Source of the DNA: Escherichia coli
GTDB taxonomy: Bacteria > Pseudomonadota > Gammaproteobacteria > Enterobacterales > Enterobacteriaceae
Direction: 5' to 3' (one strand)
DNA: 64,000 nucleotides
Assembly (NCBI RefSeq): GCF_050320075.1
Contig: NZ_CP190018.1
Shown here: piece after piece, positions 732 to 63,103 of the stretch
Numbering within the stretch: position 1 is the first letter of the stretch
How the letters are laid out: every line of letters begins with the position of its first letter
The notes under the pieces: generated by a model
What the model was told of the DNA's origin: nothing
Seen by the model: only the letters and a program-made list of their open reading frames with translations
The model's database searches: none
Made by a program: the position numbers and the translations under genes

Positions 732-810
732 GCCACTGCTTTTCTTTGATGTCCCCATTTTGTGGAGCCCATCAACCCCGCCATTTTGGTTCAAGGTTGG
801 TGGGTTTTTT
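732..810 (+). ncRNA. rybB: RybB small RNA (sigma-E dependent, Hfq-binding)
   Basis: GCCACTGCTTTTCTTTGATGTCCCCATTTTGTGGAGCCC... ends in GC-rich stem plus TTTTTT (805-810); matches recalled RybB; lies in the ybjL-rcdA intergenic region as in K-12. Confidence 0.8.
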
Positions 811-12303: not shown

Positions 12304-12690
12304 ATGGGTGTGTATAAGGCAAGACGATTCAGCCAAAGCACGAAAAAACTTGGTATTCACGATAAAGTTCTCATGGCTGCCGCTGAAGAAGTGATGCAGG
12401 GCATATGGGAGGCTGATTTAGGTAGCGGTGTCATCAAAAAACGTTTACCCCTCCAACAAGGAAAGAGTGGTGGAGCCAGAACAATTATCTTTTTTAAATC
12501 AGCAAATCATGTGTTTTTTTATGATGGTTGGTCCAAGAGTGGTCTAAGCAGTAAAGGAACCAAAGAAATCGAAGATGATGAACTGGCGGCCTACAAAAAA
12601 ATGGCAAATGCATTTCTGGCCTTTAGCAATAAGCAAATAGAGGATTTGATCGAAACTGGCTTTTTGATTGAGGTGAAAAATGAGCGATAA
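12304..12690 (+). CDS. RelE/HigB-2-like type II toxin (GKSGGAR motif)
   Basis: 128-aa ORF; motif QQGKSGGARTIIFF resembles recalled HigB-2/RelE-like toxins; precedes and overlaps an HTH antitoxin gene by 11 nt; absent from the K-12 rimO-dgcI interval. Confidence 0.75.
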   Translation: MGVYKARRFSQSTKKLGIHDKVLMAAAEEVMQGIWEADLGSGVIKKRLPLQQGKSGGARTIIFFKSANHVFFYDGWSKSGLSSKGTKEIEDDELAAYKKMANAFLAFSNKQIEDLIETGFLIEVKNER

Positions 12691-13009
12691 ATTACAAATG
12701 ATGCTGGAAGATGCAAAGGAACTGAATGCACTGGGCCTGATGTCTGATAGTGAAGTTGATGCCATTGCCGTCATGGTCAAAGCTCGTGAAGTCAGCGCCC
12801 GTATAGCCAAAGTCAAATCAATGACGGGTGAAGAGATCAAAGCCATCCGCACCCGATACGGCATGTCACAATCCGTGCTGGCACATACAATGGGAATGTC
12901 AAAAGAAAGTGTCTCGAAATGGGAACGAAATGAAATAAAACCGAGCGGCCCGGCACTACGTATTTTGAATACATTGGCAATAAAAGGGCCGGAAGTTTTT
13001 GCAAAGTAA
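12680..13009 (+). CDS. XRE-family HTH antitoxin (HigA-2-like)
   Basis: 109-aa ORF; C-terminal HTH (GMSQSVLAHTMGMSKESVSKWERNEIKPSGPALRILNTL); ATG lies inside the toxin gene 3' end. Confidence 0.75.
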   Translation: MSDKLQMMLEDAKELNALGLMSDSEVDAIAVMVKAREVSARIAKVKSMTGEEIKAIRTRYGMSQSVLAHTMGMSKESVSKWERNEIKPSGPALRILNTLAIKGPEVFAK

Positions 13010-16479: not shown

Positions 16480-16487
16480 AAAAATGG
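16480..16487. repeat. IS1 target-site duplication, left copy (AAAAATGG)
   Basis: 8 bp identical to 17256-17263, immediately flanking the IS1 terminal inverted repeats. Confidence 0.7.
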
Positions 16488-16502
16488 GGTAATGACTCCA
16501 AC

Positions 16503-17006
16503 TTATTGATAGTGTTTTATGTTCAGATAATGCCCGATGACTTTGTCATGCAGCTCCACCGATTTTGAGAACGACAGCGACTTCCGTCCCAGCCGTGCCA
16601 GGTGCTGCCTCAGATTCAGGTTATGCCGCTCAATTCGCTGCGTATATCGCTTGCTGATTACGTGCAGCTTTCCCTTCAGGCGGGATTCATACAGCGGCCA
16701 GCCATCCGTCATCCATATCACCACGTCAAAGGGTGACAGCAGGCTCATAAGACGCCCCAGCGTCGCCATAGTGCGTTCACCGAATACGTGCGCAACAACC
16801 GTCTTCCGGAGCCTGTCATACGCGTAAAACAGCCAGCGCTGGCGCGATTTAGCCCCGACGTATCCCCACTGTTCGTCCATTTCCGCGCAGACGATGACGT
16901 CACTGCCCGGCTGTATGCGCGAGGTTACCGACTGCGGCCTGAGTTTTTTAAATGGCGGAAAATCGTGTTGAGGCCAACGCCCATAATGCGGGCAGTTGCC
17001 CGGCAT
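16503..17006 (-). CDS. insB: IS1 transposase InsB (expressed as InsAB' by -1 frameshift)
   Basis: 167-aa ORF, matches recalled IS1 InsB. Confidence 0.9.
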
Positions 17007-17200
17007 CCAACGCCATTCATGGCCATATCAATGATTTTCTGGTGCGTACCGGGTTGAGAAGCGGTGTAAGTGAACTGCAGTTGCCATGTTTTACGGCAGT
17101 GAGAGCAGAGATAGCGCTGATGTCCGGCGGTGCTTTTGCCGTTACGCACCACCCCGTCAGTAGCTGAACAGGAGGGACAGCTGATAGAAACAGAAGCCAC
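16925..17200 (-). CDS. insA: IS1 InsA repressor
   Basis: 91-aa ORF beginning [40 protein letters not shown] (zinc-finger and HTH). Confidence 0.9.
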
Positions 17201-17255
17201 TGGAGCACCTCAAAAACACCATCATACACTAAATCAGTAAGTTGGCAGCATCACC

Positions 17256-17263
17256 AAAAATGG
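17256..17263. repeat. IS1 target-site duplication, right copy (AAAAATGG)
   Basis: Identical to 16480-16487. Confidence 0.7.
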
Positions 17264-31467: not shown

Positions 31468-32733
31468 ATGGCTTCTACTTTTACCAGCGACACATTGCCT
31501 GCCGATCACAAAGCAGCTATCCGTCAGATGAAGCACGCGCTGCGGGCGCAGCTTGGCGACGTCCAGCAGATCTTTAATCAGCTAAGCGATGACATTGCCA
31601 CGCGAGTGGCTGAAATCAACGCACTCAAAGCACAGGGCGATGCCGTCTGGCCGGTGCTGTCTTATGCCGATATCAAAGCAGGTCATGTTACTGCAGAGCA
31701 GCGCATACAGATTAAACGTCGCGGTTGTGCGGTGATAAAAGGCCATTTCCCCCGCGAACAAGCGCTAGGCTGGGATCAGTCGATGCTGGACTATCTGGAC
31801 CGCAACCGCTTTGACGAGGTCTACAAAGGCCCCGGCGATAATTTCTTCGGGACGCTCAGCGCTTCACGTCCCGAGATTTACCCCATCTACTGGTCGCAGG
31901 CGCAAATGCAGGCTCGCCAGAGTGAAGAAATGGCGAATGCGCAGTCGTTTCTCAATCGTCTGTGGACATTTGAAAGTGATGGAAAGCAATGGTTTAACCC
32001 GGATGTGAGCGTCATCTACCCTGACCGTATCCGCCGCCGTCCGCCCGGAACGACCTCCAAAGGTCTTGGAGCGCATACCGACTCCGGGGCACTGGAACGC
32101 TGGCTGCTTCCAGCGTATCAGCGCGTTTTCGCCAACGTCTTTAATGGCAATCTGGCGCAATATGATCCCTGGCATGCGGCACATCGTACGGAAGTTGAAG
32201 AGTACACGGTGGACAACACCACCAAATGTTCCGTGTTTCGGACATTCCAGGGCTGGACAGCGCTCTCTGATATGCTGCCTGGTCAGGGGCTGCTGCACGT
32301 CGTGCCCATTCCTGAAGCCATGGCGTACGTACTGTTACGTCCGCTGCTTGATGATGTGCCGGAGGATGAACTGTGCGGCGTAGCGCCCGGAAGAGTATTG
32401 CCGGTATCAGAGCAATGGCATCCACTGTTGATTGAGGCGTTAACCAGCATTCCAAAACTCGAAGCCGGAGACTCCGTCTGGTGGCACTGCGACGTCATCC
32501 ATTCCGTTGCCCCCGTTGAAAATCAACAGGGCTGGGGCAACGTGATGTACATTCCTGCGGCACCGATGTGCGAGAAAAATCTTGCCTACGCGCACAAGGT
32601 GAAGGCCGCACTGGAAAAAGGCGCATCGCCGGGCGACTTCCCGCGCGAGGACTATGAAACAAACTGGGAAGGACGCTTTACGCTTGCCGACCTCAACATT
32701 CACGGTAAGCGAGCGTTGGGAATCGACAGCTGA
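31468..32733 (+). CDS. ybiU: DUF1479-family protein YbiU
   Basis: ORF 31462..32733; ATG 31468 (MASTFTSDTLPADHK); 421 aa. Confidence 0.85.
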   Translation: MASTFTSDTLPADHKAAIRQMKHALRAQLGDVQQIFNQLSDDIATRVAEINALKAQGDAVWPVLSYADIKAGHVTAEQRIQIKRRGCAVIKGHFPREQALGWDQSMLDYLDRNRFDEVYKGPGDNFFGTLSASRPEIYPIYWSQAQMQARQSEEMANAQSFLNRLWTFESDGKQWFNPDVSVIYPDRIRRRPPGTTSKGLGAHTDSGALERWLLPAYQRVFANVFNGNLAQYDPWHAAHRTEVEEYTVDNTTKCSVFRTFQGWTALSDMLPGQGLLHVVPIPEAMAYVLLRPLLDDVPEDELCGVAPGRVLPVSEQWHPLLIEALTSIPKLEAGDSVWWHCDVIHSVAPVENQQGWGNVMYIPAAPMCEKNLAYAHKVKAALEKGASPGDFPREDYETNWEGRFTLADLNIHGKRALGIDS

Positions 32734-33803
32734 GTGTCGTACAGCCCTTCCCGTTCCACGGCGGTGTTCCCTTTTCCTGGGCGAACCCGCCGCACTGACT
32801 CCCGCACCGCCAATCGTCCGTGCAGCAGCAGCGAGCCCACCGGAGCATCCGGGCGAATCAGCCGCTGTTGCAACATTTGCACCGCTTCATTGCCTAGCTC
32901 ATCGCGTGGCACATGCACAGCCGTCAGGGGAACATCCTCGATTGCCGCAAGGTTAAAGCCGTCGATACTCATCACCGAGACATCCTGTGGTACGCGCAGA
33001 CCACGACGATGTAGCGCATTTACCGTTCCCGCCGCCATAAAATCCCCGCCGACCAGAAACGCCGTCGGCAACGTCTTGCCATTGGCGGCATCCAGCCACG
33101 CTCCGACCTTTTCTTCCGCTTCTTTAGCGCTAAAACTGCTGATATTCAGCAAATGACGGTCATGGTGAAAGGCCAGATTATGCTGACGCCATGATTCTTT
33201 AATCCCTGCAAACCGCTGCTCCATAGTGTAGCGGCGCAGGCACATCACATTCATCACCTCCCGGTGACCCATTTCAAACAGATAGCGGGCGGCGAACGCG
33301 CCAATTAACCGATGGTCCGGCGCAATCGCCGGGAGGCGCATTCGTTCATCACGGCAGTTGATCAGCACACAAGGCTTAGCGAGATCGGCGGCCAGATCAT
33401 GGATGTGCGGATCGTCAATCCCCAGCAGGATCGCCGCCTGCGTATCTGCTTCATTCATTCGCGAGAGAAATAGCGCGGGATCGCTGTCAAACTCCTCCAG
33501 CGCGCAGTAACGCAGCCGCACTTCATGCGGCGATAACGCTTTGCTGATGCTCTGGATCACACGGTAATAAAAGATATCAGATCGTTGGTCAAAAGCGCGT
33601 TGCGGCGCGAAAATAATCAGGTTGTTCAGCAACATACGACCTGCTGCCATGCCATCCATCACGCCCAACTCACGCGCGCAGGCCAGCACCTGTTCGCGAG
33701 CGCGTGCACTGGTATTCGCTTTGCCAGCCAGCACCCGCGAAACCGTACTCGGCGATAGCCCGGTACGTGCGGCGATATCGGCGATTTTCAGCTTCTTGTC
33801 CAT
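32700..33803 (-). CDS. LacI/GalR-family transcriptional regulator (accessory island)
   Basis: ORF 32700..33881; start set at ATG 33801-33803 (MDKKLKIADIAARTGLSPSTVSRVLAG, N-terminal HTH); periplasmic-binding-like effector domain; last ~11 codons are antisense to the ybiU 3' end; not present between ybiU and ybiT in K-12. Confidence 0.8.
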   Translation of the reverse strand: MDKKLKIADIAARTGLSPSTVSRVLAGKANTSARAREQVLACARELGVMDGMAAGRMLLNNLIIFAPQRAFDQRSDIFYYRVIQSISKALSPHEVRLRYCALEEFDSDPALFLSRMNEADTQAAILLGIDDPHIHDLAADLAKPCVLINCRDERMRLPAIAPDHRLIGAFAARYLFEMGHREVMNVMCLRRYTMEQRFAGIKESWRQHNLAFHHDRHLLNISSFSAKEAEEKVGAWLDAANGKTLPTAFLVGGDFMAAGTVNALHRRGLRVPQDVSVMSIDGFNLAAIEDVPLTAVHVPRDELGNEAVQMLQQRLIRPDAPVGSLLLHGRLAVRESVRRVRPGKGNTAVEREGLYDTQLSIPNARLP

Positions 33804-34097
33804 TTTGTGATCTGCCTCTAATTCGGAAATGACAGAATTTTCATGAGCAAAAAAGCCCATTCTGTCTGGCATTAAATCCATTTCAGTAATGTATATCAGT
33901 CACTCATGGAAAAACGTGCACAAAACCCGCTTTCTTTCGCTTTTAGGGTCTCTTACTGTGAATTGGTAGAACAACTTCCATACAAAAATAATGGAAAAAC
34001 GAACAATAAAGACTTTATTTATCAAAAAGTTAAAAGTGGTGTGACAACTCCATTCTGACGTTGCCACACAAACCCTATACCATTCTGTGGAGTGCAT

Positions 34098-35399
34098 ATG
34101 AGTCAGGGTATCAATAACGATATGACTGCCAGTAAACCGCGCCATATCGTCAAAAATCTGCGTTGGTGGATACTGGTCCTTTTTTTGCTCGGTGTTACTG
34201 TCAACTACATCACGCGTAACTCGCTGGGTATTCTCGCCCCCGAACTGAAAAGCAACCTGGGGATTACCACCGAACAATATTCCTGGATTGTAGGTGCTTT
34301 CCAGCTCGCCTATACCCTATTCCAACCGTTGTGTGGATGGCTGATTGACGTCATTGGCCTCAAACTGGGCTTTATGATCTGCGCGGGACTGTGGGCGCTG
34401 GCCTGTCTGATGCATGCGGGGGCGGGAAACTGGGTACATCTGGCGCTGTTGCGCTTCTTTATGGGCGGTGCGGAAGCCGCGGCAACCCCAGCAAACGCCA
34501 AAACCATCGGTGAATGGTTTCCAAAATCAGAACGCCCGATCGCCGCAGGCTGGGCAGGCGTCGGTTTTTCCATCGGTGCCATGCTGGCCCCACCGATTAT
34601 CTATTTTGCCCACGCTTCATTCGGCTGGCAGGGTGCATTTATGTTCACTGGCATCCTGGCGATGCTGTGGGTGGTGCTGTGGTGGGCGTTCTATCACAAC
34701 CCGGATAAGCATCCGAACCTCAGCAAAGCCGAGCTGGACTTTATCCGCCAGGATAACGAAGCGCCCCCGATTAAATTACCCTTTCTGACCGCACTGAAAA
34801 CCGTGGGCAAAAATAAACGCTTTTACGGTATCGCTATCCCGGCCTTTATGGCAGAACCGGCGTGGGCGGTGATGAGTTTCTGGGTGCCGCTATACCTGTC
34901 CAAAACCTATGGCATGGACCTGAAGCAGATCGCATTATTCGCCTGGTTGCCGTTCCTCGCCGCTGATCTTGGCAGTATTGCCAGCGGCTATCTGACCAAA
35001 CTTTACACCCGCCTGTTTGGGCTGAGTCGTGTGAACTCCGTTGTCGCATCATCGGTCAGTGGCGCATTCTTGATGGTTTCGCTGGCGGTGATGGCCTTTA
35101 CCAATAACCCGTATATCGCCATCGTCCTTATTTCCATCGGCGGCTTCGGTCACCAGATCATCTCCTGCATGCTGAGCGCACTGGTGGTGGAATCCTTCGA
35201 CAAAGGTCAGATGGCCACTGTTAACGGCATGCGCGGTTCTGCCGCGTGGATCGCAAGTTTCCTGTTCTCCCTGATTATCGGGGTTACCGCTGACAAAATC
35301 GGCTTTAACCCCCTGTTTATCGCCATGGGCTTCTTTGACCTGATTGGCGCTTTCTTCCTGGTCACCTTTATTGCTGAACGTCGCGCAAAACGCGCCTGA
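34098..35399 (+). CDS. MFS transporter, anion:cation symporter family (ExuT/DgoT-like)
   Basis: ORF 34092..35399; ATG 34098 preceded by GTGGAG SD; 12-TM MFS; strong similarity pattern to recalled ExuT (e.g. TRN, FQPLCGWLIDVIG, GGAEAA, EWFP, FAWLPFLAADLG). Confidence 0.8.
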   Translation: MSQGINNDMTASKPRHIVKNLRWWILVLFLLGVTVNYITRNSLGILAPELKSNLGITTEQYSWIVGAFQLAYTLFQPLCGWLIDVIGLKLGFMICAGLWALACLMHAGAGNWVHLALLRFFMGGAEAAATPANAKTIGEWFPKSERPIAAGWAGVGFSIGAMLAPPIIYFAHASFGWQGAFMFTGILAMLWVVLWWAFYHNPDKHPNLSKAELDFIRQDNEAPPIKLPFLTALKTVGKNKRFYGIAIPAFMAEPAWAVMSFWVPLYLSKTYGMDLKQIALFAWLPFLAADLGSIASGYLTKLYTRLFGLSRVNSVVASSVSGAFLMVSLAVMAFTNNPYIAIVLISIGGFGHQIISCMLSALVVESFDKGQMATVNGMRGSAAWIASFLFSLIIGVTADKIGFNPLFIAMGFFDLIGAFFLVTFIAERRAKRA

Positions 35400-35413
35400 G
35401 AGTGGATGTAAAC

Positions 35414-37777
35414 ATGAAAACGCTGAAAAACTGGACCCTGCACAAACAGTCTGCCCACCACGTTGAACTGCTGGTCGATGGCCAGCATATCCTGTGCCTG
35501 TACGTGCTGGAAGAAAATCTGTTCCGCGTGCTGTTAAAACGCAAAGGCGAGCTGGCGCTGGATCGCACCTGGAGCATTGCTCCGGCGCAGGATGTGCCAT
35601 GGGAAGGGCGCAGCCGCGAAGATCTCAGCGGCTTTAGCCTGCCCGCGTGGACATTGATCCAGCACGACGACACCGTGGTTATCGCCACCGAGTCACTGCG
35701 TGCCACCGTTCACCAGCCGCTGTGGCTGGAGTGGCACTATCGTAACAACGAAGGCGAATGGCTGCCGTTGGTGAATGACCGCCCGACCAGCGCTTATCTG
35801 CTGAATGCCCACGGCGATGGCGTGGCACACTATCAGAGCCGTCGTAAAGATGAACGCTTTTATGGCCTCGGAGATAAAGCCGGCGACCTGCAACGCAACG
35901 GTAAACGTTACGAGATGCGTAACCTCGACGCGATGGGCTACAACGCCGTTAGTACTGACCCGCTGTACAAACACATTCCATTCACCATCACCCGCCGCGA
36001 TGACATTAGCTTCGGCCTGTTTTATGACAACCTCAGCAGCTGCTGGCTGGATCTGGGCAACGAGATCGACAACTACCACACCGCCTATCGCCGCTGGCAG
36101 GCGGAAGCGGGTGATATCGACTACTACCTGTTTACCGGCGAACGCGTACTTGATATCACCAAAGCCTTCGTACGCCTGACCGGCAAAACCCTGTTCGGAC
36201 CGAAATGGAGCCTGGGCTACAGCGGTTCAACTATGCACTACACCGATGCGCCGGACGCACAAAATCAGTTGATGAACTTTATCCGCCTGTGTGAAGAACA
36301 TGCGATTCCCTGCGATTCGTTCCAGCTCTCTTCCGGTTATACCTCAATTAACGGCAAGCGCTATGTGTTCAACTGGAATTACGACAAAGTGCCGCAGCCG
36401 AAAGTGATGAGCCAGGCATTTCACAATGCTGGTTTGCACCTGGCCGCCAATATCAAGCCGTGCCTGTTGCAGGATCACCCACGCTATAACGAAGTGGCAG
36501 AAAGAGGACTGTTCATCCGTGATTCAGAAACAGATGAACCAGAACGTTCCAGCTTCTGGGATGACGAAGGTTCTAACCTCGACTTTACTAATCCGCAGAC
36601 CATCCAGTGGTGGCAGGAAGGCGTGACCACACAGCTTCTGGAGATGGGTATCGACTCCACCTGGAACGACAACAACGAATTCGAAGTATGGGACGGTGAA
36701 GCACGCTGTCACGGCTTTGGTCAGACGATCGCGATCAAACATATTCGCCCGGTGATGCCACTGCTGATGATGCGAGCCTCGATGGAAGCCCAGCAACGTT
36801 TCGCTCCGGAAAAACGTCCGTACTTGATCTCCCGCTCCGGCTGCGCGGGAATGCAGCGCTATGTGCAGACCTGGAGCGGCGATAACCGCACTAGCTGGGA
36901 CACTCTGCGCTACAACACCCGCATGGGTCTGGGGATGAGCCTCTCCGGGCTGTATAACCTCGGTCACGACGTCGGCGGTTTCTCCGGTGATAAGCCGGAC
37001 CCGGAACTGTTTGTACGCTGGGTACAAAACGGCGTGATGCATCCGCGCTTTACGATTCACTCGTGGAACGATGACCATACCGTAAACGAACCGTGGATGT
37101 ATCCGGGCGTCACTCCGGCGATCCGCAGCGCTATTGAGTTGCGCTATCGCCTGCTGCCCTACTTTTATACCCTGATGTGGCAGGCATACGCCGATGATGA
37201 ACCAATGCTGCGTCCGACTTTCCTTGACCACGAGCACGACGTTCAGACTTTTGAAGAGTGTGATGACTTCCTGCTTGGTCGCGATATTTTGGTTGCCAGC
37301 GTCGTAGAGCAAGGCGAGCGCCAGCGCCGTGTATGGCTGCCAGATAACGAAACTGGCTGGTACGATTTCTACAACGGCGAATGGTTCAGTGGCGGTCAGT
37401 GGATCACCCTCGACGCACCGCTGGAGAAACTGCCGCTGATGGTGCGTGCCGGGGCTGGTCTACCGCTCAGCAAACGCATCACCTATGTGAGCGCAGAACA
37501 AGACGATACCCGCGAACTGAAACTGTTCCCGCTGAAAGGTGTGGGCACAACGTCCGGCCTGCTGTTTGAAGACGATGGCGAAAGCTGGGGCTACCAAACT
37601 GGTAATGCGCTTTGGGTGGAATGGGAAATGGTTTGCGATGGGGCGACCATCAACCTGAAAGTCAACGCGCGCGGGGATTATCGACCTGCATGGAGTGCAC
37701 TGAAAGTGTCATTACCAGTGGAAGAAAAACGCACGCTGCTGGTCAATGGTGTTGAAGGGAGTGAATGGATGCGTTAA
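35414..37777 (+). CDS. Glycoside hydrolase family 31 enzyme (alpha-glucosidase-like), specificity unknown
   Basis: ORF 35402..37777; ATG 35414; GH31 signature regions WNDNNEF (nucleophile region, cf. WIDMNE), QTWSGDNRTSW (acid/base region), GHDVGGF. Confidence 0.8.
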   Translation: MKTLKNWTLHKQSAHHVELLVDGQHILCLYVLEENLFRVLLKRKGELALDRTWSIAPAQDVPWEGRSREDLSGFSLPAWTLIQHDDTVVIATESLRATVHQPLWLEWHYRNNEGEWLPLVNDRPTSAYLLNAHGDGVAHYQSRRKDERFYGLGDKAGDLQRNGKRYEMRNLDAMGYNAVSTDPLYKHIPFTITRRDDISFGLFYDNLSSCWLDLGNEIDNYHTAYRRWQAEAGDIDYYLFTGERVLDITKAFVRLTGKTLFGPKWSLGYSGSTMHYTDAPDAQNQLMNFIRLCEEHAIPCDSFQLSSGYTSINGKRYVFNWNYDKVPQPKVMSQAFHNAGLHLAANIKPCLLQDHPRYNEVAERGLFIRDSETDEPERSSFWDDEGSNLDFTNPQTIQWWQEGVTTQLLEMGIDSTWNDNNEFEVWDGEARCHGFGQTIAIKHIRPVMPLLMMRASMEAQQRFAPEKRPYLISRSGCAGMQRYVQTWSGDNRTSWDTLRYNTRMGLGMSLSGLYNLGHDVGGFSGDKPDPELFVRWVQNGVMHPRFTIHSWNDDHTVNEPWMYPGVTPAIRSAIELRYRLLPYFYTLMWQAYADDEPMLRPTFLDHEHDVQTFEECDDFLLGRDILVASVVEQGERQRRVWLPDNETGWYDFYNGEWFSGGQWITLDAPLEKLPLMVRAGAGLPLSKRITYVSAEQDDTRELKLFPLKGVGTTSGLLFEDDGESWGYQTGNALWVEWEMVCDGATINLKVNARGDYRPAWSALKVSLPVEEKRTLLVNGVEGSEWMR

Positions 37778-62381: not shown

Positions 62382-62663
62382 TTATTCCGCTGGCGGCCAT
62401 TGCAGAGCGGTATGTAAAACACGCAGTACCGAGAGCGTATCGCCCTCCACTTGATAGACAAGCACATAATGCGGCCTGACAACGGCTTCATGTGTACCAG
62501 CGACTCGTCCGGCCCGGTACATCTCCGGGCGTTCACAGGCCTGTTCCGCAATGGCTTCAAATTGATTATCAAGGGCTATTGCCGCTAGCGGATTATCTTT
62601 ACTGATGTATTCCATGATTTGCTCCCTGTCAGACAGGGACATTGGCTTCCATTCCAGACGCAT
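62382..62663 (-). CDS. ParE/RelE-superfamily toxin-like protein (accessory; occupies the K-12 ybiA position)
   Basis: 93-aa ORF; ParE-like features (N-terminal LSDREQIMEYI, central GR, C-terminal VLVYQVEGDTLSVLRVLH); start overlaps the upstream gene stop (TAATG). Confidence 0.7.
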   Translation of the reverse strand: MRLEWKPMSLSDREQIMEYISKDNPLAAIALDNQFEAIAEQACERPEMYRAGRVAGTHEAVVRPHYVLVYQVEGDTLSVLRVLHTALQWPPAE

Positions 62664-63103
62664 TAATCCCCCTTCAGCAAGGCTTTTTTACGGGCAGCAA
62701 ATAGACTTTTGGCCTCTTCATGAGAGAGTGCCGGGCGTGGATCGTCAATGGCGGCCTGCACCTGCTCTCGAAACCAGGCATCATACGCGGCAGCTTCATG
62801 AGCTCGTTTTAATGCCTCAGCCCTGTCTGGTCGGGTCGTTTTCTTCTGACCGTCCGGGTCGTAATTAGAGGCGTCGACTTCAAACCGGGCAATACCAACA
62901 TCTTTCAGGTAGTTGACAACCGTTTCCAGCCGTTTGAACAGGCGGATTTGCCGACTGCGTTGTGCTGCAAGAGGCCGTTCAGTGTGGCCGTATTTCACGG
63001 TCAACGACCAGCCTCCCTGGGTGCCAATAACGTGTGCTGCATCCACTACGCCAGATTCAACCAGTTTATGTAAGGTTGAGTGATCGATCGTTTCTGGTGC
63101 CAT
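62663..63103 (-). CDS. Hypothetical 146-aa protein, presumed cognate partner (antitoxin or regulator) of the ParE-like toxin
   Basis: ORF translationally coupled to the toxin gene; charged helical C-terminal region (RPDRAEALKRAHEAAAYDAWFREQVQAAIDDP...); N-terminal ~90 aa unassigned; much longer than typical ParD/Phd antitoxins. Confidence 0.6.
   Translation of the reverse strand: MAPETIDHSTLHKLVESGVVDAAHVIGTQGGWSLTVKYGHTERPLAAQRSRQIRLFKRLETVVNYLKDVGIARFEVDASNYDPDGQKKTTRPDRAEALKRAHEAAAYDAWFREQVQAAIDDPRPALSHEEAKSLFAARKKALLKGD

Follow-up and report, generated by a model that had tools for sequence, protein, structure and literature searches.

The 64-kb stretch of Escherichia coli DNA analysed here (the window) carries, close to its start, the gene for the small RNA RybB. 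The RNA lies between ybjL and rcdA, where the sequence-only reading had placed it, and the gene order ybjL-rybB-rcdA, followed by ybjJ and ybjI, is the one annotated by RefSeq both in a K-12 derivative and in the complete genome closest to the window. The same ybjL-rcdA (ybjK) intergenic location is described for Escherichia and Salmonella by Papenfort et al. (PMC1804206). The features of the locus are the following:

ending at 655, + strand: ybjL, the upstream neighbour
732-810, + strand: rybB, a 79-nt Hfq-dependent sRNA (RF00110 match, K-12 identity over 732-786, fold, covariation)
732-747, + strand: the 5′ seed of RybB, GCCACUGCUUUUCUUU
762-977, + strand: a mechanically called open reading frame (71 aa) that begins with GTG and that we do not regard as a gene; 762-810 is shared with rybB, and 830-977 is antisense to rcdA
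830-1366, - strand: rcdA (ybjK), a TetR-family regulator and convergent downstream neighbour (RefSeq annotation of near-identical genomes; Pfam TetR_N and TetR_C_31)

The whole window was scanned with Rfam 15 at gathering thresholds, and RybB (RF00110, cut-off 40 bits) was the sole match found. It spans 735-813 on the + strand with 104.8 bits (E 1.7e-20), covers the model from 1 to 79 of 79 positions without truncation and reaches 2.6 times the gathering score, with no non-canonical pairs flagged. The model begins three bases inside the RNA, as the published 5′ end GCCACUG is found at window position 732. This published 5′ end is GCCACUGCUUUUCUUU, known as the RybB-16 oligo (PMC4911921), to which positions 732-747 are identical, as they are to K-12. 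With the 5′ end at 732 and the U-tract ending at 810, the mature 79-nt RNA corresponds to 732-810 and reads GCCACTGCTTTTCTTTGATGTCCCCATTTTGTGGAGCCCATCAACCCCGCCATTTTGGTTCAAGGTTGGTGGGTTTTTT. Its first 55 nt (732-786) are identical to those of the K-12 derivative. Across 117 aligned sequences the seed columns 732-747 are invariant, which is partly so by construction, as the retrieval probe covers most of this stretch. The sequence-only reading had assigned 732-810 to rybB and had named a covariance-model search and an alignment to K-12 as suitable checks; the search supported the assignment over the full length of the model, and the alignment gave two differences within the RNA, at 787 and 800. 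We found no evidence against the identification, and judging from the sequence the rybB allele at 732-810, which encodes the sigma-E-dependent, Hfq-binding sRNA of Enterobacterales, is almost certainly functional. The locus as such is a well-known and ordinary envelope-stress sRNA gene. In the RefSeq tables returned for NZ_CP087136.1, NZ_CP042899.1 and NZ_AP024687.1 a rybB ncRNA feature was absent and the region was shown as empty.

Upstream of the RNA we identified the elements of a sigma-E-type promoter:

695, + strand: a private C-to-A SNP relative to K-12
698-706, + strand: the -35 element AGAACTTTT, with its core GAACTT at 699-704
699-725, + strand: the sigma-E-type promoter of rybB, with the pattern GAACTT-N16-TCTTA
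720-725, + strand: the -10 element GTCTTA (TCTTA at 721-725), ending six bases before the +1 at G732

AGAACTT (698-704) is thus followed by a 16-nt spacer and TCTTA (721-725), and both elements are the same as in K-12. On both strands of the window the pattern GAACTT-N16-TCTTA has a single match, whereas dinucleotide-preserving shuffles gave an expectation of 0.02. According to Papenfort et al. (PMC1804206), the sigma-E consensus is GGAACTTTT and GTCAAA; the -10 element departs from this at two positions, in the window as in K-12. The same paper reports that rybB transcription is strictly rpoE-dependent, a Salmonella gfp fusion being at background level in a ΔrpoE strain. We then compared the rybB loci of 116 other Enterobacterales species representatives, which had been collected with a 24-nt probe for the conserved 5′ part. 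The distance of GAACTT from the start is unchanged in 112 of these species, and a GTC[A/T/C]NA hexamer occupies -12 to -7 in all 116. The commonest form of this hexamer is GTCATA (44 species), followed by GTCTTA, the form of the window (38), and GTCTGA (25). The 16-nt spacer in between is not conserved, and conserved elements around an unconserved spacer are the pattern of a real promoter. The promoter noted in the sequence-only reading is supported by this comparison, and its sigma-E dependence is taken from the literature.

At -37, the C695A substitution precedes the -35 element by three bases. None of the 5,426 complete E. coli genomes searched contained the exact 30-mer that carries it (681-710). 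The alignment column at -37 is unconserved across species, and the substitution is therefore probably neutral.

The 3′ part of the RNA forms the terminator, in which both RNA differences from K-12 are situated:

766-777 and 795-806, + strand: arms of the terminator hairpin, with a 12-bp stem and a 17-nt loop at 778-794 (Rfam, minimum free energy fold)
787, + strand: C in K-12, T in the window, in the terminator loop; in the predicted fold it adds one A-U pair to a small inner helix
800, + strand: A in K-12, G in the window, in the 3′ arm, turning the pair U772-A800 into U772.G800; the phage attachment core described below begins with this base
805-810, + strand: the U-tract (U6)

The rybB terminator escaped a simple terminator scan, since its 17-nt loop is longer than the 3-8 nt to which that scan is limited. 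The hairpin is nevertheless supported by Rfam, by folding and by covariation. Of the cells of the proposed helices in the alignment of 117 sequences, 96.1% are paired, and compensatory double changes occur at six pairs. Covariation scored 0.300, compared with 0.139 in shuffles and at most 0.06 in controls with slid partners. The sequence-only reading had seen a G.U in the terminator stem where an A-U was expected, and had refrained from calling it a variant; A800G is indeed a real difference from K-12. Folding predicted the same helices for the window and the K-12 alleles, with minimum free energies of -25.2 kcal/mol for K-12, -25.0 for the window, -24.6 for A800G alone and -25.6 for C787U alone. 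At the pair 772/800, the 117 sequences of the family harbour UA 59 times, AU 35 times, UG four times and GU once. The loop sequence ATTTTGG, which corresponds to the T787 form, is present in several other genera.

To count the alleles, exact 30-mers spanning 787 and 800 were searched in the 5,426 complete E. coli genomes, with the following numbers of genomes per haplotype (787/800):

C-A, the K-12 type: 4,502
C-G: 739
T-G, the haplotype of the window: 153

In total, G800 is found in 892 of the 5,426 genomes (16%). A800G is hence a common standing allele of E. coli and neither a sequencing error nor a defect, for which such a wobble could be mistaken. The 116 other species all lack the sequence GGTTGGTGGG, which suggests that G800 within this type of stem is specific to E. 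coli. From the thermodynamic prediction and the allele frequency, A800G and C787U would both be neutral.

The 3′ end of rybB is at the same time an attachment site of P2-like (Peduoviridae) prophages. The sequence-only reading had mentioned neither this attachment core nor the second RNA difference at 787 nor the private SNP at 695. The site and its occupied counterparts are composed as follows:

800-826, no strand: the empty 27-bp attachment core of P2-like prophages, GTGGGTTTTTTGTTGCCTAAAATTTAT (direct repeats of lysogens, attP of phage KP12)
rybB-side junction in three lysogens: ATGGGTTTTTTGTT-GCCTGAAATTTA, followed by T or A and then the phage arm
rcdA-side junction in these three lysogens: ATGGGTTTTTTGTT-ATCTAAAA, followed by C or T, TTAT and then the chromosomal arm

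A 261-bp query around rybB matched 5,422 genomes, in 4,226 of which it was uninterrupted. In the remaining ~1,196 (~22%) it was interrupted at approximately window position 826. Four interrupted genomes were inspected, and in each of them rybB and rcdA are separated by a P2-like prophage, whose ogr adjoins rybB and whose integrase gene adjoins rcdA. KSC64 and KMi025 have lost parts of the prophage, whereas FUJ80154 and 11899A_LBHALD carry it in full. P2-like prophages occupy the rybB site, a known hotspot, in ~22% of E. coli genomes. The 27-bp core is present as a direct repeat at both prophage ends. Its bases 800-813 were identical at both junctions in all four lysogens, and its right half differed between the junctions in three of them. 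As the junction halves differ beyond the shared bases, the exchange would take place within 800-813, a segment made up of the last bases of the terminator stem, the U-tract and GTT, according to what these lysogens show. An exchange at this position would leave the rybB RNA intact. The core consists of the last 11 nt of rybB and the next 16 bp, so that ~60% of it lies beyond the RNA.

Phage genomes support this assignment. In Klebsiella phage KP12, int, attP and ogr are contiguous and ATGGGTTTTTTGTTGTCTGAAATTTAT is located between int and ogr; the attP core matches the core of the window at 24 of 27 bases. In the record of Klebsiella phage 4LV2017, attR is annotated on the 3′ end of rybB. Within the phage collection, five records matched the rybB 3′ region and 19 the reconstructed attP, and most members of this rybB-integrating group are known only as prophages. 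At least nine of the species representatives, among them Serratia, Raoultella, Enterobacter and Escherichia species, have a homologue of ogr or gpD immediately next to the 3′ end of rybB. The attachment site at rybB is already known. Archer et al. reported P2-like prophages at the 'rybB ncRNA' in E. coli W, B and Crooks, that of E. coli B carrying the retron Ec86 (PMC3032704), and Hochhauser et al. described a hotspot within rybB at which the integrated prophages are exclusively Felsduovirus (PMC10121019). The prophages inspected here have conserved modules with differing cargo between them: FUJ80154 has DUF262 and DUF4041 proteins, KMi025 a TIGR02391 protein and KSC64 an acyltransferase. Such differences fit the published hotspot for defence systems (PMC10121019). 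In the window the site is empty, rcdA following rybB directly and without an insertion. It therefore represents a vacant landing pad for P2-like prophages, which are often carriers of anti-phage defence systems.

Just 3′ of the RNA the window differs from K-12 at 814, 815 and 822 (GC at 814-815 and T at 822 in the window). Together with 800, all these differences are inside the 27-bp core. In the 5,426 genomes, the forms of the right half of the core, each taken together with the arm on the rcdA side, had the following counts:

ATCTAAAAC, the K-12 type: 2,229 genomes
GCCTGAAAT, the phage type: 498 genomes, including O157:H7 with an empty site
GCCTAAAAT, the type of the window: 254 genomes

The right half of the window, GCCTAAAAT, resembles the phage arm of lysogens and had at first been read as a phage scar; this was downgraded, GCCTGAAAT being a widespread chromosomal state in the 116-species comparison. 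A further 263 genomes combine G800 with the right half of the K-12 type. For 800 and 814-815, all four combinations therefore exist, namely A-AT in K-12, A-GC in O157:H7, G-GC in the window and G-AT in these 263 genomes. Four combinations of sites 14 bp apart point to recombination or recurrent mutation within the segment of phage exchange. Among the compared haplotypes the 27-bp core has five variable sites, versus one in the preceding 68 nt of the RNA. In the species comparison, GTTGCCTGAAAT in the 811-826 region beyond the RNA end is conserved, as a 12-nt block, at the place of the right half of the core, and in the promoter spacer changes have reached saturation.

This clustering raises the question of whether the 3′-end differences (G800, GC814-815 and T822) are footprints of past integration and loss of P2-like prophages rather than point mutations. 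All four are inside the core, where the window matches the core of the FUJ80154 prophage at 26 of 27 bases and K-12 at 22 of 27, and the four combinations of 800 and 814-815 bracket the proposed exchange segment within a core that is richer in variable sites than the RNA before it. However, GTTGCCTGAAAT follows the terminator widely across genera (from Escherichia via Kluyvera, Citrobacter and Serratia to Yersinia), so that the right half of the window may be near-ancestral and that of K-12 derived. Conservative site-specific excision, moreover, restores the original attB, and A800G is a transition that could recur. Nor was G800 enriched among lysogens, a rough reading because the junction query, performed by Megablast with a 28-base word, misses prophages with divergent arms and found 425 genomes compared to ~1,196 interrupted sites. 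We therefore consider footprints of this kind an unlikely origin of the four differences. The idea that repeated integration and loss at the core shuffles or replaces its right half, making the window allele a phage-shaped mosaic, is likewise doubtful. If true, such shuffling would account for the clustering of polymorphisms at 800-822, for the occurrence of all four combinations of alleles within 14 bp and for the conservation of GTTGCCTGAAAT across genera, and a mobile element would then be shaping the terminator sequence of a core regulatory RNA.

It also has to be considered whether the window allele is functionally weakened, either by the U.G loosening the terminator or altering Hfq binding at the 3′ end, or by C695A altering the strength of the promoter. 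A800G does exchange a Watson-Crick pair of an intrinsic terminator stem for a wobble, at a cost of 0.6 kcal/mol on its own (-24.6 versus -25.2), and C695A is absent from all complete genomes searched. However, C787U brings the total back to -25.0 kcal/mol with the same fold, other species have U.G and G.U at the pair 772/800, and -37 is not conserved among species. A frequency of 16% among complete E. coli genomes is, in addition, improbable for a damaging allele of a core sRNA. A weakened allele is thus very improbable. Still less credible is a real 71-aa protein encoded by 762-977 on a longer transcript overlapping rybB, which we regard as practically out of the question, even though an uninterrupted frame of 71 codons with a GTG start exists. 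The frame had no Pfam family at E≤1, no CDS was annotated at this position in RefSeq records that are 99.6-100% alike over the stretch, and no Shine-Dalgarno-like sequence was seen upstream of the GTG (ccccattttGTG). It is antisense to the coding sequence of rcdA over 148 of its 216 bases (two thirds), and its translation would require read-through of a strong intrinsic terminator. The GTG is situated within UUGUGG, which is UUGAGG in 43 of the 117 sequences, where the start codon is lost, and a prophage at the rybB site cuts the frame after codon 22 in the ~22% of genomes that are occupied. The frame is a spurious by-product of six-frame translation, and the earlier view that it should not be annotated as a protein stands. 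For annotation, the ncRNA rybB should be entered and the frame 762-977 should not be called; beyond this the finding has little significance.

With an intact and ordinary rybB as the preferred reading, the locus would work as described in the literature. During envelope stress, sigma-E RNA polymerase would start at G732 from GAACTT-N16-TCTTA, and transcription would end at the hairpin and U-tract between 766 and 810. The invariant 5′ seed would then pair with mRNAs of outer-membrane proteins, leading to their faster decay. That RybB binds Hfq and represses its targets by base pairing is reported in PMC4911921 and PMC1804206. The seed and the 3′ U-tract, both required for Hfq-dependent action, are present in the window allele, and C787U and A800G in the terminator hairpin would leave the predicted fold as it is in K-12. 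The same DNA would serve as the chromosomal attachment site of P2-like phages, its core spanning the terminator end and 16 further bases, and the exchange in 800-813 would keep rybB whole after integration.

Compared to RybB of K-12 and Salmonella (RF00110), the window shares the ybjL-rcdA locus, the strand logic, the sigma-E-type promoter, the first 55 nt with the 16-nt seed, the terminator architecture, the U-tract and the length of 79 nt. It differs from K-12 by C787U, A800G and C695A as well as by the substitutions at 814, 815 and 822. MicA and MicL, the other sRNAs of E. coli that depend on sigma-E, have the same kind of promoter and, according to PMC1804206 and PMC4102768, are likewise sigma-E-induced, Hfq-dependent sRNAs that lower the synthesis of abundant envelope proteins; however, they are unrelated to RybB in sequence, are found at other loci and have other targets. 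The attachment site resembles phage sites in the 3′ ends of tRNA, tmRNA and sRNA genes, where the attP copy of the RNA 3′ end rebuilds the gene. Examples are the P2-like prophages at cyaR and rybB in the E. coli strains W, B and Crooks (PMC3032704) and the Felsduovirus hotspot #29 (PMC10121019). In contrast to such sites, the one in the window is empty, and 16 of the 27 bp of its core are beyond the RNA.

The closest complete genome is that of CFSAN061763, which is 99.97% identical over ~63 kb with 15 SNPs, C695A among them. Elsewhere in the window an IS1 copy of 768 bp (16488-17255, with insA and insB on the - strand) interrupts pdeI (yliE) and is flanked by an 8-bp duplication, AAAAATGG, at 16480-16487 and 17256-17263. 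This copy is missing from CFSAN061763, where another IS1, which shares 96.7% identity with it and is oppositely oriented, is inserted in the adjacent gene dgcI; in the window dgcI is intact. Three further gene sets were read from the RefSeq annotation of this 99.97%-identical genome. A RelE/ParE toxin with an HTH antitoxin (~12304-13009) between rimO and dgcI, and an island with a LacI regulator, an MFS transporter and a GH31 glycosidase (~32700-37777) between ybiU and ybiT, are absent from the K-12-like loci that were fetched. The third is a RelE/ParE-PaaA2 pair (~62382-63103) between dinG and rhlE, which we take to be absent from K-12.
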